Virus record (IMG/VR): IMGVR_UViG_3300044251_000011
Location: 1 to 57,555 of that record
Reading direction: 5' to 3' (one strand)
Source of the DNA: a virus
Lineage: Duplodnaviria > Caudoviricetes
DNA: 57,555 bases
This document shows, in pieces, positions 2,989 through 45,866 of the stretch. How positions within the stretch are numbered: position 1 is the first letter of the stretch; every line of letters starts with the position of its first letter. A program made the translations under genes and the position numbers. A model generated the notes under the pieces. The model worked only from the letters and a program-made list of their open reading frames with translations, had not been told where the DNA came from and did no database searches.

Positions 2989-3218
2989 GTCGATCTCTTT
3001 TCTCTCTTTACGCGCTCAGGGACCTTGTGGCCCTGGCTTGGTACGACCCGTCCGGACCTGGCCTAAGCCTCGTGGCCCGGACGGGCCGAGTGGATTCTGG
3101 AGGGCCACTCCCCCAGGCCGTTAGGTAAGGCCCACACCAAGGTTCGCCCGCGTCACGACTGCTCACCCGGGGGTGGATCGTGTACGACCTGCCGCTTACC
3201 TCGAACTCGTTTCGGTCG

Positions 3219-3291
3219 CGCCCCGCCGTGGACTCGAACCACGGTGTCCCTCATCCGGCAATCTTGGGATGACAACTGCCTATCCAGGGGC
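3219..3291 (-). ncRNA. tRNA-like element (non-canonical) inside a structured ~350-nt leader
   Basis: T arm CGTGG-TTCGAGT-CCACG, acceptor-like GCCCC/GGGGC, TCATCC/GGATGA stem with 10-nt loop, no D stem, 73 nt. Confidence 0.5.
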
Positions 3292-3383: not shown

Positions 3384-4508
3384 CTTGGGGTCGGCCTTGA
3401 TCTTCAGCTCCTTGGGGACCGAGATCGTCATGCGCCGGTATCGACTGCTCACGGTCACGGCCTCGGCCACCTCGGGGTACAGCGTCCGGAGCGCGTCCAC
3501 GTCCACCCGCTTGGAGCTGACCTCGGGGTACCCGACGATCTTCCGCTCCCCGAGGTAGGCCGCGCCAGCGCCGCCGGTCCAGTCGCGGAACTGGTTCTTG
3601 ATCGTGGTCAGCCGCTTGTCCGCCAGCTCGGCGGCCACCTTGGCCTCCTGGTACTCCTTCAGCCAGTCCTCCGTGATGCCCCCGCCGGGCAGCTCCACCG
3701 AGGGCGTGATCACCGTGGGGTTCTGCTCCTTCAGCAAGTCCTCGGTGATCGGGTGCGAGTAGTCGTGCATCGGGATCTCGTCGCCCAGGACGTGCACCTC
3801 CCAGAACCGATCGGCGGCGGCCACCATCTCCCCGAACCAGTCAGGATCGAAGTGCACCTCCACCGTGAAGAACTGGCGGGACCGGTCGATGTGGAAGCAA
3901 CCCAGGTAGCCCACGGGAAGGCCCAGGATGCCCATCTGCCACTGGATCTGAGCCTGGTAGGCCAGGGGAGCGGAACCCGTCCCACGGCCGCCAGGGCGGA
4001 TCGTGCCGGACTCCCAGTGCTCATCGTCCCCGGCCGTCTTGCACTCGATCACGGCCTCGGCTTTCCAGCTCCTGGGCTTGCACGCGAACCGGTCCGGGGT
4101 CACCCGGATGTACGGCTTGTCGGTCATCGCCCACAGGCCCCCGCCGAACCGCGAGACCATGCCGATCTCCTCGGCGGTCTTGCGGGCCACGACCTCCTCC
4201 AGCCGGTGGCCCCACTCGATCGGAGCGCCGGTCAGCTCCACGTCCGGCTCGGTCCGCTTCTTCTTGTTCCAGATCGACATCGCGGTCTCGTGCTCGTTCA
4301 CCCCGATGAGCGCCCCGACCTCGGAGCCGCCCACGCCATCGCGGCGAGCGGCCAGCCACGGGCCGCGTCCGGCGCACTCGGGGAGGATCAGACGGCTCGG
4401 TGCCGAGCGCGGACTGGCGAACCGGTGGACGGGATGGGGGCACGCGAGGCGGCCCCCGGAGCGGGCCAGGTAACGCTCTACCTGGCCCGCCTCGGTGGTG
4501 ATCGTCAT
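3381..4508 (-). CDS. YqaJ/lambda-exonuclease-like recombination nuclease
   Basis: WLAARRDGVGGSE, WGHRLE, TPD, IECKT, YQAQIQWQM; true start MTITTE at 4508 (ATGA overlap). Confidence 0.9.
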   Translation of the reverse strand: MTITTEAGQVERYLARSGGRLACPHPVHRFASPRSAPSRLILPECAGRGPWLAARRDGVGGSEVGALIGVNEHETAMSIWNKKKRTEPDVELTGAPIEWGHRLEEVVARKTAEEIGMVSRFGGGLWAMTDKPYIRVTPDRFACKPRSWKAEAVIECKTAGDDEHWESGTIRPGGRGTGSAPLAYQAQIQWQMGILGLPVGYLGCFHIDRSRQFFTVEVHFDPDWFGEMVAAADRFWEVHVLGDEIPMHDYSHPITEDLLKEQNPTVITPSVELPGGGITEDWLKEYQEAKVAAELADKRLTTIKNQFRDWTGGAGAAYLGERKIVGYPEVSSKRVDVDALRTLYPEVAEAVTVSSRYRRMTISVPKELKIKADPK

Positions 4509-6697: not shown

Positions 6698-6865
6698 CCC
6701 CGTACGCGACATCACTCCAGGAGATCCCATAGCGTCCGCCGCTGGCGTAGGGGTCTCTCCGCCACAACCGTGGGGCTGGCCCCGCCAGGAGCGCGCCTGG
6801 CCCTACACAAGCGCCAGCCCCGGCCCTCGGGGAGGGACGGGGCTGGCCCGGCGCTAGCGGCCCGC

Positions 6866-8725
6866 TCAGGCGGCCGTGAACAGGCTCTCGCACGAGTCGC
6901 ACCGGACCACGCCCAGGTCGAGAACCTTCCGGCTCAACCGGATGATGATCGGCTCGGCGCACTCGCACGTGGCCTTGAGGTTGCCGCTCTTGGTCTCGCC
7001 CTCCTGGCCCTTGACCGGCTTGCCGGTGATCTTCTCTCCGCCGCGCTCGTCCTCGTCGTCCGAGCCGCCCAGCCAGAAGGGGAGGAGACCGGTCAGCTTC
7101 AGCTCGCGCTCCAGCTCGCCCAGGATCTCCGCGTACTTGACCTTGGTCGCCTCGGTCAGCGTGACGAACGAGAACCCGTGGGTCTTGTCGGGGTTCGCGC
7201 CCTTGTGCTCCAGGCCCAGCTCCTCGGCCGTCTTGCGGAACGTGCCGTTGTGGTACCGGTTCTGGCGGCTGGTGTCCTGGACGCCCCGGACCTTGCTCAG
7301 CGTGTGGGCCGCCTCGTGGATCGTGGTCTGGAGCACCTGGAGCGCGCCCTTTGCCAGGGCCTCGCTCGCCAGGAAGAACTCGTGAAGCTTCTCCCCGTCC
7401 TTGCCGAGCCTCCAGCTCTCCGGCCGGAAGTGCCCCCACTTGACGCCCTCGCCGGACCCGGTGGTCACCACGACCCGGGGGAGTTCCGGGTGTTCCGCCC
7501 GGATGGCGTCCCAGACCTTCTCGATCAGGATGACCACGGTGGAGCCGGTGTGGATCTCGGGCGCTGTTGCCGGTGCGGTCTCGGTCTGGGCGGTCATCTC
7601 GGGCTCCTCGGTGTCGTCCTCGCTGTTGAGACCAACCTTACCGTCTTGACTGTGAAGTGTCAACTCCTCCGCCTGGGAAGTTCCGGCCGGGCCGTAGATC
7701 CCGCCCGGGGCCTCGTTCGCCTCGCGGGCCGCCTCGGCGTCCGCCAGGTTCTCCCGCTCGCTCTGGGCCGCGTTCTCCTCCACCTGGGTCTCGGTCAGGG
7801 TGAAGCGCTCCGCGCCCTCCTCGGCCTCCTGGACCGGCTCGGCCGGGGTCTCGACCACGGGGGCCGGGGCCACGTAGACCGTCGTGTGGAGTTCGGTCGC
7901 GGTCTGGACCCGGACCGAGCCGCCCGGCGCGCTGGCGGCGGCCGTGGTCAGCGCCACCAGGGTCTTGGTCGGGGTGTTCTTCACGACCACTCCCCGGCGG
8001 AGTTCGCCCATCGCGTAGGCGTAGACCACGGTCCCGATCGGCTGGGCCTCGGTGGCCTGGACCCAGGTGCTCGGCTTCACTGCCGAGACGAGGGCGATCA
8101 GGTCGGCGGTCTCGCCGTTGCTCAGCGGGTAGTTCCGGGCCTCGGTGTGGGTCAGGTTCTGGGCCATCTCGATCTCCTCCGGTGCGTTGTCTTTGCTGTT
8201 AGGACTAACCTTACAGGCTTGACTGTGAAGTGTCAACGACTGGGCCGACTCAATTTCCAGGGCCTCGGCGTGGGCGTCGTCCAGCGCGCCGGAGGTCCGG
8301 AAGTCGGCGGCCAGCTCGGCCCGCTCGGCCGGGGTGAACTCCTCGGCGGCCGGGGCCGCCCCCGCCTCAACGGCGGGGGCAGCGGCGGCGGCCAGCTCGG
8401 CCCGGTGGGCGTCCTCGGCCACGGCCTCGGCGTACGCCCGCTTGATACCGGCCGGGTCCTCCGGGGCCAGCCACATGGTCTGGATCGGAGCCGCGTCGAA
8501 CGATCCGGCGCTGGTGTGGATCACGTACTTGCCCCGGGCCTCGTACCGGCCAGCGGCCCGGAAACCCTTCTCGATGATCCGGGCAACGAACACGCCCTCC
8601 CCGGTCTTGGTGCTGCTCGGGCGGATCGTGGCGTGGCCCTCAGCGTCGTACGAGACCTTGACGATGATCCGCATCCCGGCCTCGGCCTCGCTGGCGTTGA
8701 CCTTGCCCTTGGCGATGCTGCCCAT
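6866..8725 (-). CDS. Multi-module protein with C-terminal SprT-like zinc metallopeptidase and Zn ribbon; internal in-frame starts at 8167 and 7597
   Basis: HEAAH, RYHNGTF..AEELGL, CEC..CDSC; each of the three ATGs has its own promoter and RBS. Confidence 0.8.
   Translation of the reverse strand: MGSIAKGKVNASEAEAGMRIIVKVSYDAEGHATIRPSSTKTGEGVFVARIIEKGFRAAGRYEARGKYVIHTSAGSFDAAPIQTMWLAPEDPAGIKRAYAEAVAEDAHRAELAAAAAPAVEAGAAPAAEEFTPAERAELAADFRTSGALDDAHAEALEIESAQSLTLHSQACKVSPNSKDNAPEEIEMAQNLTHTEARNYPLSNGETADLIALVSAVKPSTWVQATEAQPIGTVVYAYAMGELRRGVVVKNTPTKTLVALTTAAASAPGGSVRVQTATELHTTVYVAPAPVVETPAEPVQEAEEGAERFTLTETQVEENAAQSERENLADAEAAREANEAPGGIYGPAGTSQAEELTLHSQDGKVGLNSEDDTEEPEMTAQTETAPATAPEIHTGSTVVILIEKVWDAIRAEHPELPRVVVTTGSGEGVKWGHFRPESWRLGKDGEKLHEFFLASEALAKGALQVLQTTIHEAAHTLSKVRGVQDTSRQNRYHNGTFRKTAEELGLEHKGANPDKTHGFSFVTLTEATKVKYAEILGELERELKLTGLLPFWLGGSDDEDERGGEKITGKPVKGQEGETKSGNLKATCECAEPIIIRLSRKVLDLGVVRCDSCESLFTAA
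7635..7663 (-). promoter_or_regulatory. Intragenic promoter/operator TTGACACTTCACAGTCAAGACGGTAAGGT
   Basis: TTGACA-N17-TAAGGT, then GAGGAG RBS and ATG 7597. Confidence 0.85.
8208..8236 (-). promoter_or_regulatory. Intragenic promoter/operator TTGACACTTCACAGTCAAGCCTGTAAGGT
   Basis: TTGACA-N17-TAAGGT, then GGAGGAG RBS and ATG 8167. Confidence 0.85.
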
Positions 8726-8768
8726 TTGAACCACTCCCTGGCGTGTCGTTGTCTTGCTGACATGGAGA

Positions 8769-8797
8769 ACATTACAGGCTTGACTGTGAAGTGTCAA
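8769..8797 (-). promoter_or_regulatory. Promoter/operator TTGACACTTCACAGTCAAGCCTGTAATGT
   Basis: Upstream of ATG 8725. Confidence 0.85.
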
Positions 8798-8915: not shown

Positions 8916-9125
8916 ATGACGAACCAGAAGCGCGCGAACGGCAAGCTGATCCGGAAGATCGCCAAGCTGGACCGGGCCTGGAGGCTCGCGGGCAAGGCCG
9001 AGGGCCGGACCGCAAATGACCTGGGGATGTACCTGGGCCGCGCCTACCGGGCCGGGATGGGCACCACGGCGCGCCGGGCTCAGAGCCGGAGCGCGGCCCG
9101 CCTGGGCCAAGTCAGCGGCTGGTGA
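8916..9125 (+). CDS. Small basic hypothetical protein
   Basis: Promoter upstream and hairpin downstream. Confidence 0.65.
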   Translation: MTNQKRANGKLIRKIAKLDRAWRLAGKAEGRTANDLGMYLGRAYRAGMGTTARRAQSRSAARLGQVSGW

Positions 9126-9199: not shown

Positions 9200-9472
9200 T
9201 CAGCCCGCCACGGACGCCAGATCGGTCCGTGCACCCTGGCCGGGACGGCCTTCCCTCCAGGCGTCCAGCGCGGCGCGCGTGAACACCGGGAGGTTGTACT
9301 GGCCGTCCGCCTCGCGCTCGGGCTCGGCCTCGGGGCCGATGCCGCGCGCCACGTAGCTGGAGAGCGTGTTCCGCTTCAGGCCCAGATACTCGGCGGCCGG
9401 GCCGTAGCCCACGAACCGGTCCTGGCCCTCGGTCTCCTGGCTGTCCACGTTCTCACCTTCTCTCGTCGTCAT
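9200..9472 (-). CDS. AlpA/MerR-like helix-turn-helix DNA-binding protein
   Basis: AAEYLGLKRNTLSSYVARG..P.P, LDAW..RPGQGARTDL; leaderless promoter TTGTCA-N18-TATAGT-N6-ATG (9479-9508). Confidence 0.8.
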   Translation of the reverse strand: MTTREGENVDSQETEGQDRFVGYGPAAEYLGLKRNTLSSYVARGIGPEAEPEREADGQYNLPVFTRAALDAWREGRPGQGARTDLASVAG

Positions 9473-9533
9473 GGTCTGACTATACAGGCACGCCTTCCAG
9501 GCTGACAAGCGGGGAGATTTCTGGCCGCTGGCG

Positions 9534-11471: not shown

Positions 11472-13300
11472 CGGCCGTCCGCGAGGGCCTGGAGGATCAG
11501 GTCCCGCTTGTCCTTGCGGACGCCCAGCACGATCCCCCGGTGCTTGGCGAGCGCCTTCAGCGTCGGGATCGACAGCTCGGAGATCGGCTGGCCCACGGTG
11601 GCCTCGACCACCAGGGCATCGTTCAGCCCGACCCGGGTCAGGTCCCCGTGGTGCCCGTTGCTTGACGTGTCACTGTCAAGCGCGGCGGCCGACTCTCGGA
11701 GAGCGGCCACGCCCTCGGGGTCCACGCGCTCCCACTCGGCCTCCAGCGTCGCCTTGTCCTCCGGCACCTCGGGACCGGCGGCCACCTGGCCGCCCACGGC
11801 CGGGTACGGGGAGGGGTGGACGCCCTCGCTCGTGATGGCGGTCGCCGTGCCGGTCGGCTTCAGCTTGGGCTCCTCGGTCGTCACCAGCCGGGTGACGGCC
11901 AGCCGGTCCGCGTGGATCTCGAACTCCTCCAGGAACCCCTCGGCCACCAGCTCCTCCAGCGCCTCGCGGACGCCGGGCCAGTCCGGGTGGTCCAGGTCGT
12001 CCACGGCGATGGTCGCGCCGGGGGCCAGGTGCGGAGCCCAGACCTCGATGTCCTGGCGCGCGCCCTCCTTGCTGTGGTCGCCGTCCACGAACAGGAGCCC
12101 GACCTGGCGGCCGGACCAGTCGGCGGCCACCTCGTGCGAGAAGGCGTGAACCAGGTCGATCTTGTCCTTGTACCCGAACGAGTCCACCCAGTAGGCGGCC
12201 CAGGTGCGCGAGTCGGCCTCGGTGAACGGCGGGCCGTACGTGTTGCCCGGGGCGTCCCACGCGTCGATGGCGGTCACGTGCGCGCTGTTGCCCAGCCCCG
12301 CACCCCAGGCGAGTTGCAGCGCGGTCCGGCCCTGGAACACGCCGATCTCCACGATCTCCTGGTCCGCCGGGACCTGGATCGCCAGATCGGCCAGGGTCAC
12401 CATCACATCGTCCGGCGTGGCCGCCCGGACGTTCTTGAACTGGATCGGCGGCCGGGGGCTCCGCTTCTCGGCCAGGCGGCGCGAGGTCGGGCCGGAGCGC
12501 TCCACGCGGCGCGGCGCGGAGCCAGCCACGCGCGGCCGGGCGGCCGGGCTCGGGGTGCTCGTCGGTTCGGTCACTTCAGGCCGTCCTCTCCGTAGGTGGC
12601 GGATCTCCGCCACGTCGGTCCGGAACACGTCGCCGTGTCGCCAGCTCTCGTACGCGCGCCGGTCCCGCTTGAACTGGTCCCGGTGGTTCACCCGCTGGTA
12701 CTGGGCGTCGGTCTCAGCCTTGCCCACGATCGGGTGCATGTGCTCCACCCGCACCTCGGGGAGGAAGCGGAGAGCACCGGCCGCGCCGAACATCTCCATG
12801 ATCGAGTTGTCGCAGTACATGTGCTCCACGTCGGCTGGGACCATCCGGCCCAGCGCGGCCACCACGTCCGAGGTCACGGCCCACTCGGTGCTGAGGTTCT
12901 TCCCCTGGTACCCGTCGTCGCTGTAGACCATCCCGCTCCCCAGCTCGCGGAGGACGGTCAGGTACCGCTCGGCCCAGCCGATCGTCCGGGGGAGGTGGTC
13001 GTCACCAGCGAACCCGAGGGCGAACCAGCCAGCGGCCAGCGCGGCGGCGGCCTCGTTCAGCTTGTGGACCATCGGGACGTGGTGGTCCACCTCGTACGTC
13101 TTGATCAGCGCGTCGCCGGTGTCCGGGTGCCGGGTCTCCTCGACCAGGGCCAGGTACCCGGGGTACTCCGGGTCGTCCTTGTCGATGACCAGCACCATGT
13201 CCGCGCGGTCCCAGGCGTTCGTGAAGTCCCAGGCGCTGATCACCTTGCGCACGTTGCCGGGGCGGCCCCGGGTCGGGATCAGGACAGCGAGATCACGCAT
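11468..13300 (-). CDS. GT2-like glycosyltransferase fused to class I SAM methyltransferase, with C-terminal Rho_N/HeH-like helix pair
   Basis: VLIPTRGRP, GDDHLPRT, HMYCDN, VEHMHP; VEIGVFQGRT, LLFVDGDHS, LAPGATIAVDD; SELSIPTLKALAK..GI. Confidence 0.8.
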   Translation of the reverse strand: MRDLAVLIPTRGRPGNVRKVISAWDFTNAWDRADMVLVIDKDDPEYPGYLALVEETRHPDTGDALIKTYEVDHHVPMVHKLNEAAAALAAGWFALGFAGDDHLPRTIGWAERYLTVLRELGSGMVYSDDGYQGKNLSTEWAVTSDVVAALGRMVPADVEHMYCDNSIMEMFGAAGALRFLPEVRVEHMHPIVGKAETDAQYQRVNHRDQFKRDRRAYESWRHGDVFRTDVAEIRHLRRGRPEVTEPTSTPSPAARPRVAGSAPRRVERSGPTSRRLAEKRSPRPPIQFKNVRAATPDDVMVTLADLAIQVPADQEIVEIGVFQGRTALQLAWGAGLGNSAHVTAIDAWDAPGNTYGPPFTEADSRTWAAYWVDSFGYKDKIDLVHAFSHEVAADWSGRQVGLLFVDGDHSKEGARQDIEVWAPHLAPGATIAVDDLDHPDWPGVREALEELVAEGFLEEFEIHADRLAVTRLVTTEEPKLKPTGTATAITSEGVHPSPYPAVGGQVAAGPEVPEDKATLEAEWERVDPEGVAALRESAAALDSDTSSNGHHGDLTRVGLNDALVVEATVGQPISELSIPTLKALAKHRGIVLGVRKDKRDLILQALADGR

Positions 13301-34898: not shown

Positions 34899-35417
34899 AT
34901 GGACGTACAGGTGGGCGCGACCATCACGAACGGATCGAGCTGTATCCGGGTGACGGCCCGAGTGGAGAAGGACCCGGACTGGCACGCGCCGGGCTGGCGT
35001 GGGGTGAACATCTCACTGGAGGCGTTCGGGGGCAACCGGGGCATGTCCTCGTTCGTCCCGGATCACATGCTCTCCGGCTGGTACCACCTCCCGTTCGACT
35101 GGCGGCCGTGCGTGGGCGGCCAGGTGGAGGAGCGCTACGTCTGGTCCCCCGATTGGCAGTGGCTCCAGCGCGAGGTCCGCAAGATCGAGGGCGTCCAGCC
35201 GACTGTGGACGGTATCCGGGGCCACCGGGTCACCACGGCGGCGGAGGACGAACTCCGGCGCACGCTGGCGCTCCAGGGCACCATCAGCCCGGGGGCCGTG
35301 CTGGCGCTCCTGACCGAGGAGGACTGCCGTCCCGAGCACGGCGTGGGACACCCGGACTGCCCGAAGTGCTGGCGCTACTCGGACCGCAACCCGAACCGGG
35401 TAGCCCGCCCTAGTTGA
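34899..35417 (+). CDS. Hypothetical protein
   Basis: GGAGG RBS; stop codon is the TGA inside the next TTGACA box. Confidence 0.6.
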   Translation: MDVQVGATITNGSSCIRVTARVEKDPDWHAPGWRGVNISLEAFGGNRGMSSFVPDHMLSGWYHLPFDWRPCVGGQVEERYVWSPDWQWLQREVRKIEGVQPTVDGIRGHRVTTAAEDELRRTLALQGTISPGAVLALLTEEDCRPEHGVGHPDCPKCWRYSDRNPNRVARPS

Positions 35418-35442
35418 CACTTCACAGTCAAGCCTGTAATGT
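35414..35442 (+). promoter_or_regulatory. Promoter/operator TTGACACTTCACAGTCAAGCCTGTAATGT
   Basis: Identical to the 8769-8797 copy. Confidence 0.85.
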
Positions 35443-45837: not shown

Positions 45838-45866
45838 TTGACACTTCACCGTCACGCCTGTAAAGT
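45838..45866 (+). promoter_or_regulatory. Promoter/operator TTGACA-N17-TAAAGT
   Basis: TTGACACTTCACCGTCACGCCTGTAAAGT. Confidence 0.85.

Follow-up and report, generated by a model that had tools for sequence, protein, structure and literature searches.

Several proteins that share a C-terminus and are read from one frame are known from the actinophage phiC31, whose c gene, said to have been described by Smith and Owen in 1991, reportedly yields several such isoforms. The locus described here, a minus-strand gene for a probable zinc peptidase at positions 6866 to 8797 of the IMG/VR virus record IMGVR_UViG_3300044251_000011 (57,555 bp, referred to in its full length as the window), has a similar layout: it likewise belongs to an actinophage, and it has one frame with several in-frame starts and an inverted repeat scattered genome-wide, for which about 18-30 places are given in the case of phiC31 (PMC4557955). 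The present protein differs from the c product in being a probable peptidase and not a repressor. Furthermore, each internal start is preceded by a near-identical standard cassette, a predicted promoter with operator, which is translated and lies in a disordered linker, and the starts are separated by folded domains that relatives exchange with one another, the layout being kept in dozens of genomes.

The locus may also be compared with the polyvalent proteins of phages and plasmids (Iyer et al. 2017, PMC5512222), which are multidomain early or invasion proteins comprising methylases, binding domains and a zincin-like peptidase, and for which autoproteolytic release has been proposed. Here, too, at least two unrelated domains including a predicted zincin-like peptidase are joined (two N-terminal domains, dom1 and dom2, the peptidase and a zinc ribbon), and relatives add a C5 methylase. 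Unlike the polyvalent proteins, the present ones are small, with two or three modules and SH3-like barrels, and putative promoters in the linkers are a new feature; the term 'internal promoter' is absent from PMC5512222. With the SprT/Spartan zincins (PF10263) the peptidase has in common a HExxH helix following a three-stranded sheet, a His ligand further downstream and an additional zinc-binding module, but the similarity stays under the Pfam cut-off, no solved structure was matched and the modules at its N-terminus bear no relation to any known partner of SprT. A literature search limited to main texts gave no account of promoter cassettes being translated in phages of the phiAsp2 type; its scope did not extend to the paper on the phiAsp2 genome (reportedly Virus Genes, 2004), which may describe these promoters.

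The locus is best read as one gene and a three-gene operon at the same time, encoding a modular early protein of a phiAsp2-like actinophage. In the reading that we favour, with a probability of about 0.68, nested co-C-terminal isoforms are produced under selection from a single modular gene that carries in-frame cassettes in its linkers.

The window is a complete viral record with direct terminal repeats and 70 % G+C. Its nearest named relative is the Actinoplanes phage phiAsp2 (85.9 % nucleotide identity across 56 % of a 2.3-kb query), and the locus sits in the early, replication-side region beside a RuvC-like gene. A Logan contig from the probable source run, obtained with another assembler but not an independent sample, spans positions 6700-8794 and crosses both internal cassettes with no differences and no gaps. 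Pieces from another study have no gaps either, but end at the repeated cassettes. The locus is therefore real and the nested-cassette layout is confirmed not to be an assembly artefact. None of the Logan contigs of other samples bridges the cassette repeats; all of them break there.

The minus strand carries an open frame of 619 codons (P0001) that begins with ATG 8725 and ends with TGA 6868-6866. The in-frame ATGs at 8725, 8167 and 7597, with a ribosome binding site (RBS) 6-8 nt before each, correspond to forms of 619, 433 and 243 amino acids (aa). A longer open reading frame (ORF) of 709 aa merely adds the region of the first cassette, P1, which is considered non-coding because the G+C content of third codon positions (GC3) is about 0.57 there as against 0.9-1.0 in the genes of this genome. 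The 19-mer TTGACACTTCACAGTCAAG (minus strand) is present in exact copies at 8797-8779, 8236-8218 and 7663-7645; with up to three mismatches it occurs 18 times in the whole window, where 0.01 copies would be expected. The order of parts in the module is TTGACA, 17 nt, TAATGT or TAAGGT, a leader of 37-43 nt, RBS and ATG. Two frames of the cassette contain stops (TGA in the second, TAA in the third), which leaves the TTG frame alone open, and since the TTG-to-ATG distances (72 nt in P1, 69 nt in P2 and 66 nt in P3) are all divisible by three, all three ATGs stand in this sole stop-free frame. GC3 in the ORF frame remains 0.9-1.0 through both Ala/Glu-rich linkers up to each cassette.

Cassette P1 (8723-8797, minus strand) is non-coding DNA with a low GC3 upstream of 8730. 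It comprises the -35 TTGACA (8797-8792), the palindromic element (8797-8779), the -10 TAATGT (8774-8769), GGGAG (8738-8734) and the ATG of the 619-aa form (8725-8723). P2 (8165-8236, minus strand) lies in frame within the ORF and encodes aa 164-187 (LTLHSQACKVSPNSKDNAPEEIEM); its -35 is at 8236-8231, the -10 TAAGGT at 8213-8208, GGAGGAG at 8180-8174 and the ATG of the 433-aa form at 8167-8165. P3 (7595-7663, minus strand), also in frame within the ORF, encodes aa 355-377 (LTLHSQDGKVGLNSEDDTEEPEM) and contains the -35 at 7663-7658, the -10 TAAGGT at 7640-7635, GGAG at 7607-7604 and the ATG of the 243-aa form at 7597-7595. Transcription starts are predicted at 8762, 8201 and 7628, the positions given by a 7-nt gap after the -10. 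The first-pass annotation of this DNA had described a module of about 70 bp standing three times before these ATGs and carrying TGA in one frame and TAA in another, and both statements were confirmed, by the 19-mer search with mapping of the parts and by the sequence itself. As it had also proposed, both internal copies lie within the one open frame of 619 codons and are translated, with the junction peptides that it gave, and where it had suggested looking in reads for stop codons before the internal promoters, the source-run contig is unchanged across 6700-8794.

The cassettes were compared with host promoters. The 4,228 start sites mapped in Actinoplanes sp. SE50/110 have the consensus TAnnnT for the -10 and nTGACn for the -35 (PMC7682106). 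All three cassettes fit this consensus with a spacing of 17 nt, and their sequence is conserved at the DNA level. Full cassettes precede genes all along the window, and in the window and 35 related loci taken together 106 of the 127 full cassettes are intergenic, ahead of ordinary genes. The 21 cassettes found within ORFs (17 genomes), for which the TAnnnT hexamer at 17 nt was a search criterion, are near-invariant as DNA, and the third positions of ACA, CTT, AGT and xGT are always A or T. Since GC3 of the ten codons upstream of these cassettes is 0.82, the invariant A/T third positions point to constraint on the DNA and not on the peptide. In all 21 the -10 is followed either by an RBS and ATG 60-75 nt from the TTG or by a start codon at 36 nt. 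In the 36-nt form the start codon (ATG; GTG in L033) stands 7 nt past the -10, which is the geometry of leaderless transcripts. On this basis P1, P2 and P3 are probably active promoters. The short cassette TAAGGTTGACAACATG, with ATG 7 nt after the -10, was noted in L012, L016, L020, L023, L025, L029, L032, L037 and L040; a leaderless peptidase mRNA is accordingly predicted in phages with the short form. In the window the form present is the 66-nt one, which includes an RBS.

The 18-19-nt palindrome that overlaps the -35 and is repeated genome-wide is presumably a repressor site, and the cassettes would then be under operator control. In phiC31 and L5, 18-30 repressor sites are scattered over each genome (PMC4557955), and copies of the palindrome alone inside genes fit a repressor site of this kind overlapping the -35. 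Palindromes without a -10 were seen in the window at 11662, 14463, 15961, 18009, 25350, 29877, 40634, 47796, 51272 and 54863; several of them sit inside genes of the structural region, and all these copies resemble plain binding sites.

The modular anatomy of the protein was followed by alignment and structure prediction, with confidence expressed as the predicted local distance difference test (pLDDT). The N-terminal dom1 (aa 1-95, 8441-8725, minus strand) is a Pas41-like small beta-barrel with 28 invariant columns in a 14-sequence alignment; its AlphaFold model has seven strands and a pLDDT of 78.8. Linker 1 (aa 96-162, 8240-8440, minus strand) is Ala/Glu-rich, has a GC3 of 0.93-0.97 in the ORF frame and carries a recurrent mini-motif, EFTPAERAELAADFRTSGALDDAHAEAL, which is also present in P0013, P0015, P0017, P0021, P0022 and P0030. 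It is followed, beyond P2, by dom2 (aa 187-290, 7856-8167, minus strand), a Pas42-like SH3/Tudor-like beta-barrel with a short N-terminal helical part, whose pLDDT exceeds 90 in residues 1-105 of the 433-aa form. Linker 2 (aa 291-353, 7667-7855, minus strand) is predicted to be one long helix and otherwise disordered. Beyond P3 lie the peptidase core (aa 377-545, 7091-7597, minus strand), with HEAAH at aa 470-474 (7318-7304) and an invariant third His at aa 492, an acidic Gly-rich spacer of low confidence between core and ribbon (aa 546-584, 6974-7090, minus strand), and the C-terminal zinc ribbon CxC...CxxC (C587, C589, C609 and C612) with the stop codon TGA 6868-6866 (6866-6973, minus strand; pLDDT 95-98).

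The AlphaFold model of the 433-aa form, based on a 56-sequence alignment, has a mean pLDDT of 79.6, and the dom2 barrel, the alpha/beta core with the HEAAH helix and the zinc ribbon are all confident. The peptide encoded by P3 falls in a disordered stretch (pLDDT about 30) between well-folded domains. The location of the promoter-encoded peptide (LTLHSQxGKV...) in such a stretch suggests that a sequence fixed by its DNA function is harmless to folding. Compared with PDB folds, dom1 gave weak matches only (E of at least 0.13; chromo-barrel, Tudor, SAWADEE), as did dom2 (E of at least 0.01; eL21, KapB, Agenet and Tudor barrels), the top matches of the two lying at E 0.01-0.3 and belonging to SH3-, Tudor- or chromo-barrel-type domains; against BFVD, dom2 matched phiAsp2 Pas42 with E 2e-19. 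In Pfam and PHROG neither domain belongs to any family, and the two have no similarity to each other. Among the 80 aligned relatives E402, H432, W438, E449, E455, H470, E471, H474 and H492 of the peptidase and the four cysteines C587, C589, C609 and C612 are invariant; these columns, taken from alignment A2, lie in the well-aligned peptidase part, although A2, A3 and A4, which are full-length or mixed alignments, misplaced dom2 and were not folded. The peptidase corresponds to phrog_6361, a family of unknown function (E 2.3e-43, residues 16-242 against profile positions 10-201 of 203), and its BFVD matches were the Peptidase of phage Attoomi (3.6e-8), SprT of phage FP1 (4.1e-5) and further SprT-like proteins (3e-3 to 1e-1). 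Look-ups in the Protein Atlas gave scores of 0.86 and 0.81, all below 0.9, and are leads at best. 'SprT-like zinc peptidase' is therefore used as a reasonable working name, membership of that family not being demonstrated, and the function is probably proteolytic. The small beta-rich domain with a linker that the first-pass annotation had assigned to each added segment was modelled in both cases as a small beta-barrel, and the HEAAH SprT-like peptidase and Zn ribbon that it gave to all isoforms find support in the invariance of the HExxH, the third His and the four Cys residues (n=80) and in a predicted fold resembling SprT-like viral proteins.

The linkers (8240-8440 and 7667-7855; P0009-P0033) look like mosaics of short motifs whose order and context vary among relatives. 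Examples are EFT(P/E)AER.ELA.DF(R/Q)TSGALDDAHAEAL, RFTLTE.Q..ENAA.SE and NEAPGGIY, and Cys-rich units such as CP.CGGPLASDGVCADDECG, ECEAKGCDLPEGA.ECRRCGAEP and CPNEWHRSAPAR..M.CPECP also occur.

The conservation of the frame was assessed in relatives. A phmmer search with the 243-aa peptidase against 1.84e9 representatives returned 2003 matches. Among the 50 that follow the query's own (P0005-P0054, at most 82 % identity) 42 exceed 300 aa in length and carry the peptidase at their C-terminal end, and in many relatives the translated cassette L-T-[LP]-[HND]-S-[QH]-x-[GC]-K-V stands directly ahead of an internal Met. In 40 IMG/VR loci a cassette was found within 250 nt upstream of the peptidase match in 27, and it is in the peptidase frame (frame 0) in all 24 with at least 43 % identity; the remaining three (36-38 % identity) have it in frame 0 (L053), frame 1 (L049) and frame 2 (L052). 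For metagenomes 535 loci were confirmed, 80 of these were listed and 26 were examined. A cassette is present in 12 of the 26, and all nine with at least 51 % identity are in frame 0 and fused upstream, the other three being distant standalone loci in frame 2 (L100 and L119, one sequence type) or frame 1 (L117). Pooled, 33 of 33 related loci with at least 43 % identity carry the pre-peptidase cassette in the peptidase frame, and in at least 25 of the 33 an upstream module (dom1, dom2, C5 DNA methylase or others) reads in without a stop. A tally in the window itself, where starts are in frame 0 for 7 of 11 full cassettes, is too weak and partly circular and was not counted; nor was the frame 0 of cassettes within stop-to-stop ORFs used as evidence, which is circular because the other phases hold stops.

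The agreement on the upstream side appears to be a stronger argument than these peptidase-side counts. The linker ends that reach the cassette belong to at least 12 types that cannot be aligned and differ in length and sequence, and all abutting dom1, dom2 or methylase modules enter the cassette in frame 0 (18 junctions by the GC3 criterion and nine metagenome junctions; the GC3 classifier mislabelled L013:2872 as frame 1, where frame 0 is really open for 879 nt). No module among the relatives examined ends on the cassette's own TGA or TAA, the phiAsp2 record being the exception. Unrelated upstream genes (L018, L019, L020, L041 and L043) have their own stop and a hairpin before the cassette.

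The pas41-pas42-pas43 region of phiAsp2 (NC_005885) is the orthologous locus; the three cassettes recur in it and the modules follow each other in the same order. There pas41 is annotated to end on the cassette TGA and pas42 on the cassette TAA. Both Pas41 and Pas42 have an Arg/Pro-rich C-terminal tail that looks out of frame, and GC3 moves from frame 0 through 1 to 2 in the pas41 tail and from 2 to 0 in the pas42 tail, always into the read-through frame. In the relative P0031 the corresponding linker is read without interruption. The frame changes in phiAsp2 (L001) fall near ~3040-3250 and ~3730-3740, and one of them resembles a single extra base relative to P0031. The question raised in the first-pass annotation, whether relatives keep the frame or have separate genes, is thus answered by the kept frame in the related loci (33 of 33 at 43 % identity or above), with the qualification that phiAsp2 is annotated as three genes although GC3 reaches the read-through frame. 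Its interpretation, promoter cassettes fused into a modular protease with alternative targeting domains or a self-processing polyprotein under operator control, is in part supported, by the frame kept in relatives and by the domain descriptions, and the separate genes annotated in phiAsp2 do not agree with it.

The related loci represent several architectures. The arrangement dom1-P-peptidase, where P is a cassette, is found for example in L013-16, L021, L023, L025, L038, L040, L078, L079, L081, L084 and L085; dom2-P-peptidase in L036, L037, L039 and L098; dom1-P-dom2-P-peptidase in the window and L029; methylase-P-dom2-P-peptidase in L032 and methylase-P-peptidase in L080 (PF00145 above the cut-off); and short or unknown upstream modules in L033, L083 and L096. 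In 11 loci the same modules are fused with no cassette (L024, L028, L030, L031, L034, L035, L046, L090, L095, L103 and L108). The C5 cytosine DNA methylase of L032 and L080 has no stop of its own and reads through the cassette. A quick maximum-likelihood tree of 52 peptidase domains (27 fused with a cassette, 11 fused without, 14 alone) requires at least 14 state changes. Two loci were scored as fused with a cassette arguably: L012 (phiAsp2), in which a frameshift follows 76 open codons, and L022, which has 174 open codons at a GC3 of only 0.63. The tree covers neither L026, L027, L097, L098, L118 and L119 (cut by the contig end or shorter than 225 aa), nor the metagenome duplicates of IMG/VR loci (L076, L077, L082, L088, L089, L091, L092, L094 and L102), nor any locus below about 39 % identity. 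L083, fused to an unknown module, and L019, where the peptidase stands alone behind an intergenic region with a hairpin, have near-identical peptidases with different upstream DNA, and this contrast points to recent recombination at or near the cassette. The architectures and the tree together suggest that the fused protein is usual in the clade, that the cassette was gained and lost in linkers and that upstream modules were exchanged near it. In a protein that is normally fused, the cassette thus appears to act as a linker indel that leaves the frame intact.

In the favoured reading the modules would follow each other as dom1, linker, dom2, linker, SprT-like zinc peptidase and zinc ribbon, each linker ending in a complete host-type promoter, leader, RBS and ATG placed in the sole stop-free frame. 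Transcripts from P1 would be translated through both cassettes to give the 619-aa protein, and those from P2 and P3 would give the 433-aa and 243-aa forms, to which internal initiation at the strong internal RBSs of the longer mRNAs probably adds. Three protein species would then be expected to accumulate, all with the peptidase in common. The occurrence of one palindrome in all three promoters suggests that the same DNA-binding protein would act on all of them, and since the cassette is near-identical everywhere, it is probably a crossover point for swaps of N-terminal modules. Within an early polyvalent-type protein, the barrels at the N-terminus (in some relatives, the methylase) most likely act as cargo or targeting modules.

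Several observations weigh against this reading. All three minus-strand cassettes escaped a generic sigma-70 scan with the E. coli-type consensus, since TAATGT and TAAGGT share only three of six letters with TATAAT. No RNA run holding the locus sequence was listed. In the deposited record of phiAsp2, the only cultured relative, the three genes are separate. Nor do the loci in the frame counts represent independent events; the pre-peptidase leader is always 36, 60 or 66 nt long and frame 0 is also seen in six standalone loci, so that the frame on the peptidase side may be inherited and not selected. Two other window genes on the plus strand abut a full cassette and stop on the TGA inside its TTGACA (35414-35419 and 45838-45843); their GC3 is 0.90 and 0.95, with no earlier stop for 551 and 491 nt, respectively. 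Such abutment is therefore a general habit of compaction, and frame 0 could sometimes be due to chance. The similar fusion of a methylase implies that fusion may be tolerated rather than needed. As to the peptidase, Pfam SprT-like PF10263 scored 14.1 bits against a cut-off of 25.6 and was also below threshold in 7 of 7 standalone relatives (best E 1.8e-4); P0023 reached 22.9 bits. A sequence search of PDB with the peptidase profile gave no match at E of 1 or less, and a PDB fold search with the 433-aa and dom1 models gave nothing at E of 0.001 or less, the two-domain query favouring matches to dom2.

A different functional step, with the same anatomy, is envisaged if the long forms are only precursors of a self-processing polyprotein, in which the zincin would cut the disordered linkers, perhaps at or near the promoter-encoded peptide, and free dom1, dom2 or the methylase; fused and separate genes would then be equivalent in function. 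Built-in zincin-like processing is a proposed theme of phage and plasmid polyvalent proteins (PMC5512222). The near-constant cassette peptide at every junction, the predicted disorder and hence accessibility of linkers and peptide, and the joining of a C5 methylase, obviously independent in function, by the same cassette speak for such processing. Yet 11 relatives are fused without the cassette peptide, and frameshifts that end a module on the cassette TGA or TAA should be tolerated and common if the free domains were the sole end products, while only the phiAsp2 record has them. Sequence-specific self-processing is not known in SprT-type proteases, and we consider a polyprotein possible but unlikely. 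A cassette of 66-75 nt (36 nt when leaderless) that combined promoter, repressor site and translation start with a homologous crossover point and a constant peptide site for cleavage or recognition by the zincin, in a regulated self-processing polyprotein whose promoters would encode its processing sites and which would be intermediate between operon and fusion, seems somewhat more doubtful still. The fusion could also be neutral: separate Pas41-, Pas42- and Pas43-like genes might have lost their stops because an abutting cassette supplies one, a cassette in phase 0 giving a harmless fusion. The window genes stopping at 35414 and 45838, the annotated ends of pas41 and pas42 on the cassette TGA and TAA and the similar joining of an unrelated methylase are in line with this. 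However, about two thirds of abutting junctions would then be predicted to end on cassette stops, and all those observed (18 + 9) are in frame 0, with linker ends that fall into at least 12 types and cannot be aligned. Neutral read-through, which we regard as improbable, also disagrees with the 11 loci where these modules are fused without a cassette, with the GC3 of phiAsp2 that jumps into the read-through frame and with the continuous linker of P0031.

The internal elements might, alternatively, be repressor sites or roadblocks and not promoters, the locus giving a single 619-aa protein. Palindromes without a -10 do lie inside other window genes (e.g. 11662, 15961, 18009 and 25350), and phiC31 and L5 scatter their 18-30 repressor sites (PMC4557955). 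Against such a purely regulatory role, 21 of 21 in-ORF copies keep TAnnnT at 17 nt (which was the search criterion) together with an RBS and ATG or a leaderless start, and the same full cassette is intergenic before ordinary genes in 106 of 127 cases, so this explanation appears very improbable. Finally, since the window was assembled from a metagenome and the repeated cassette tends to interrupt contigs, an assembly or sequencing error might be suspected of hiding three genes with stops. The 0 differences across 6700-8794 with the second assembler, the pieces of the other study with 0 gaps and more than 25 independent assemblies from other samples with the same in-frame layout make such an error next to impossible.

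Promoters inside genes are usually dismissed as noise or held responsible for truncated products; here a putative full-strength promoter with operator, leader and start codon stays in frame within the linkers of a modular protein and is read as coding sequence in dozens of phage genomes. Should the isoforms prove real, the locus offers a compact route to one enzyme with zero, one or two accessory domains under one repressor, a way of shuffling domains without frame errors by recombination at the shared in-frame cassette, and a natural system for watching gene fusion and fission in both directions. Automatic annotation of such phages splits the gene, as in phiAsp2, or misses the internal starts. 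The cassette may also serve as a ready-made strong promoter for Actinoplanes/Micromonosporaceae that tolerates translation, to judge from its predicted elements.

A single-peptidase scan of genome contigs for prophage relatives gave 352 pattern matches, none of which was confirmed. Downstream of the stop codon lies a G+C-rich hairpin (6781-6865, minus strand; -55.7 kcal/mol), and beyond it the next cassette (6697-6679) stands ahead of a Pas44-like gene, which it is expected to drive. On the other side of the locus, a divergent 69-aa Pas40-like gene (8916-9125) belongs to no family. The small protein encoded at 9200-9478 (minus strand) has a match to HTH_17 below the threshold (E 5e-5, 23.9 bits against a cut-off of 27); it is kept beside the locus in the relatives L019 and L041 and is a candidate DNA-binding regulator.

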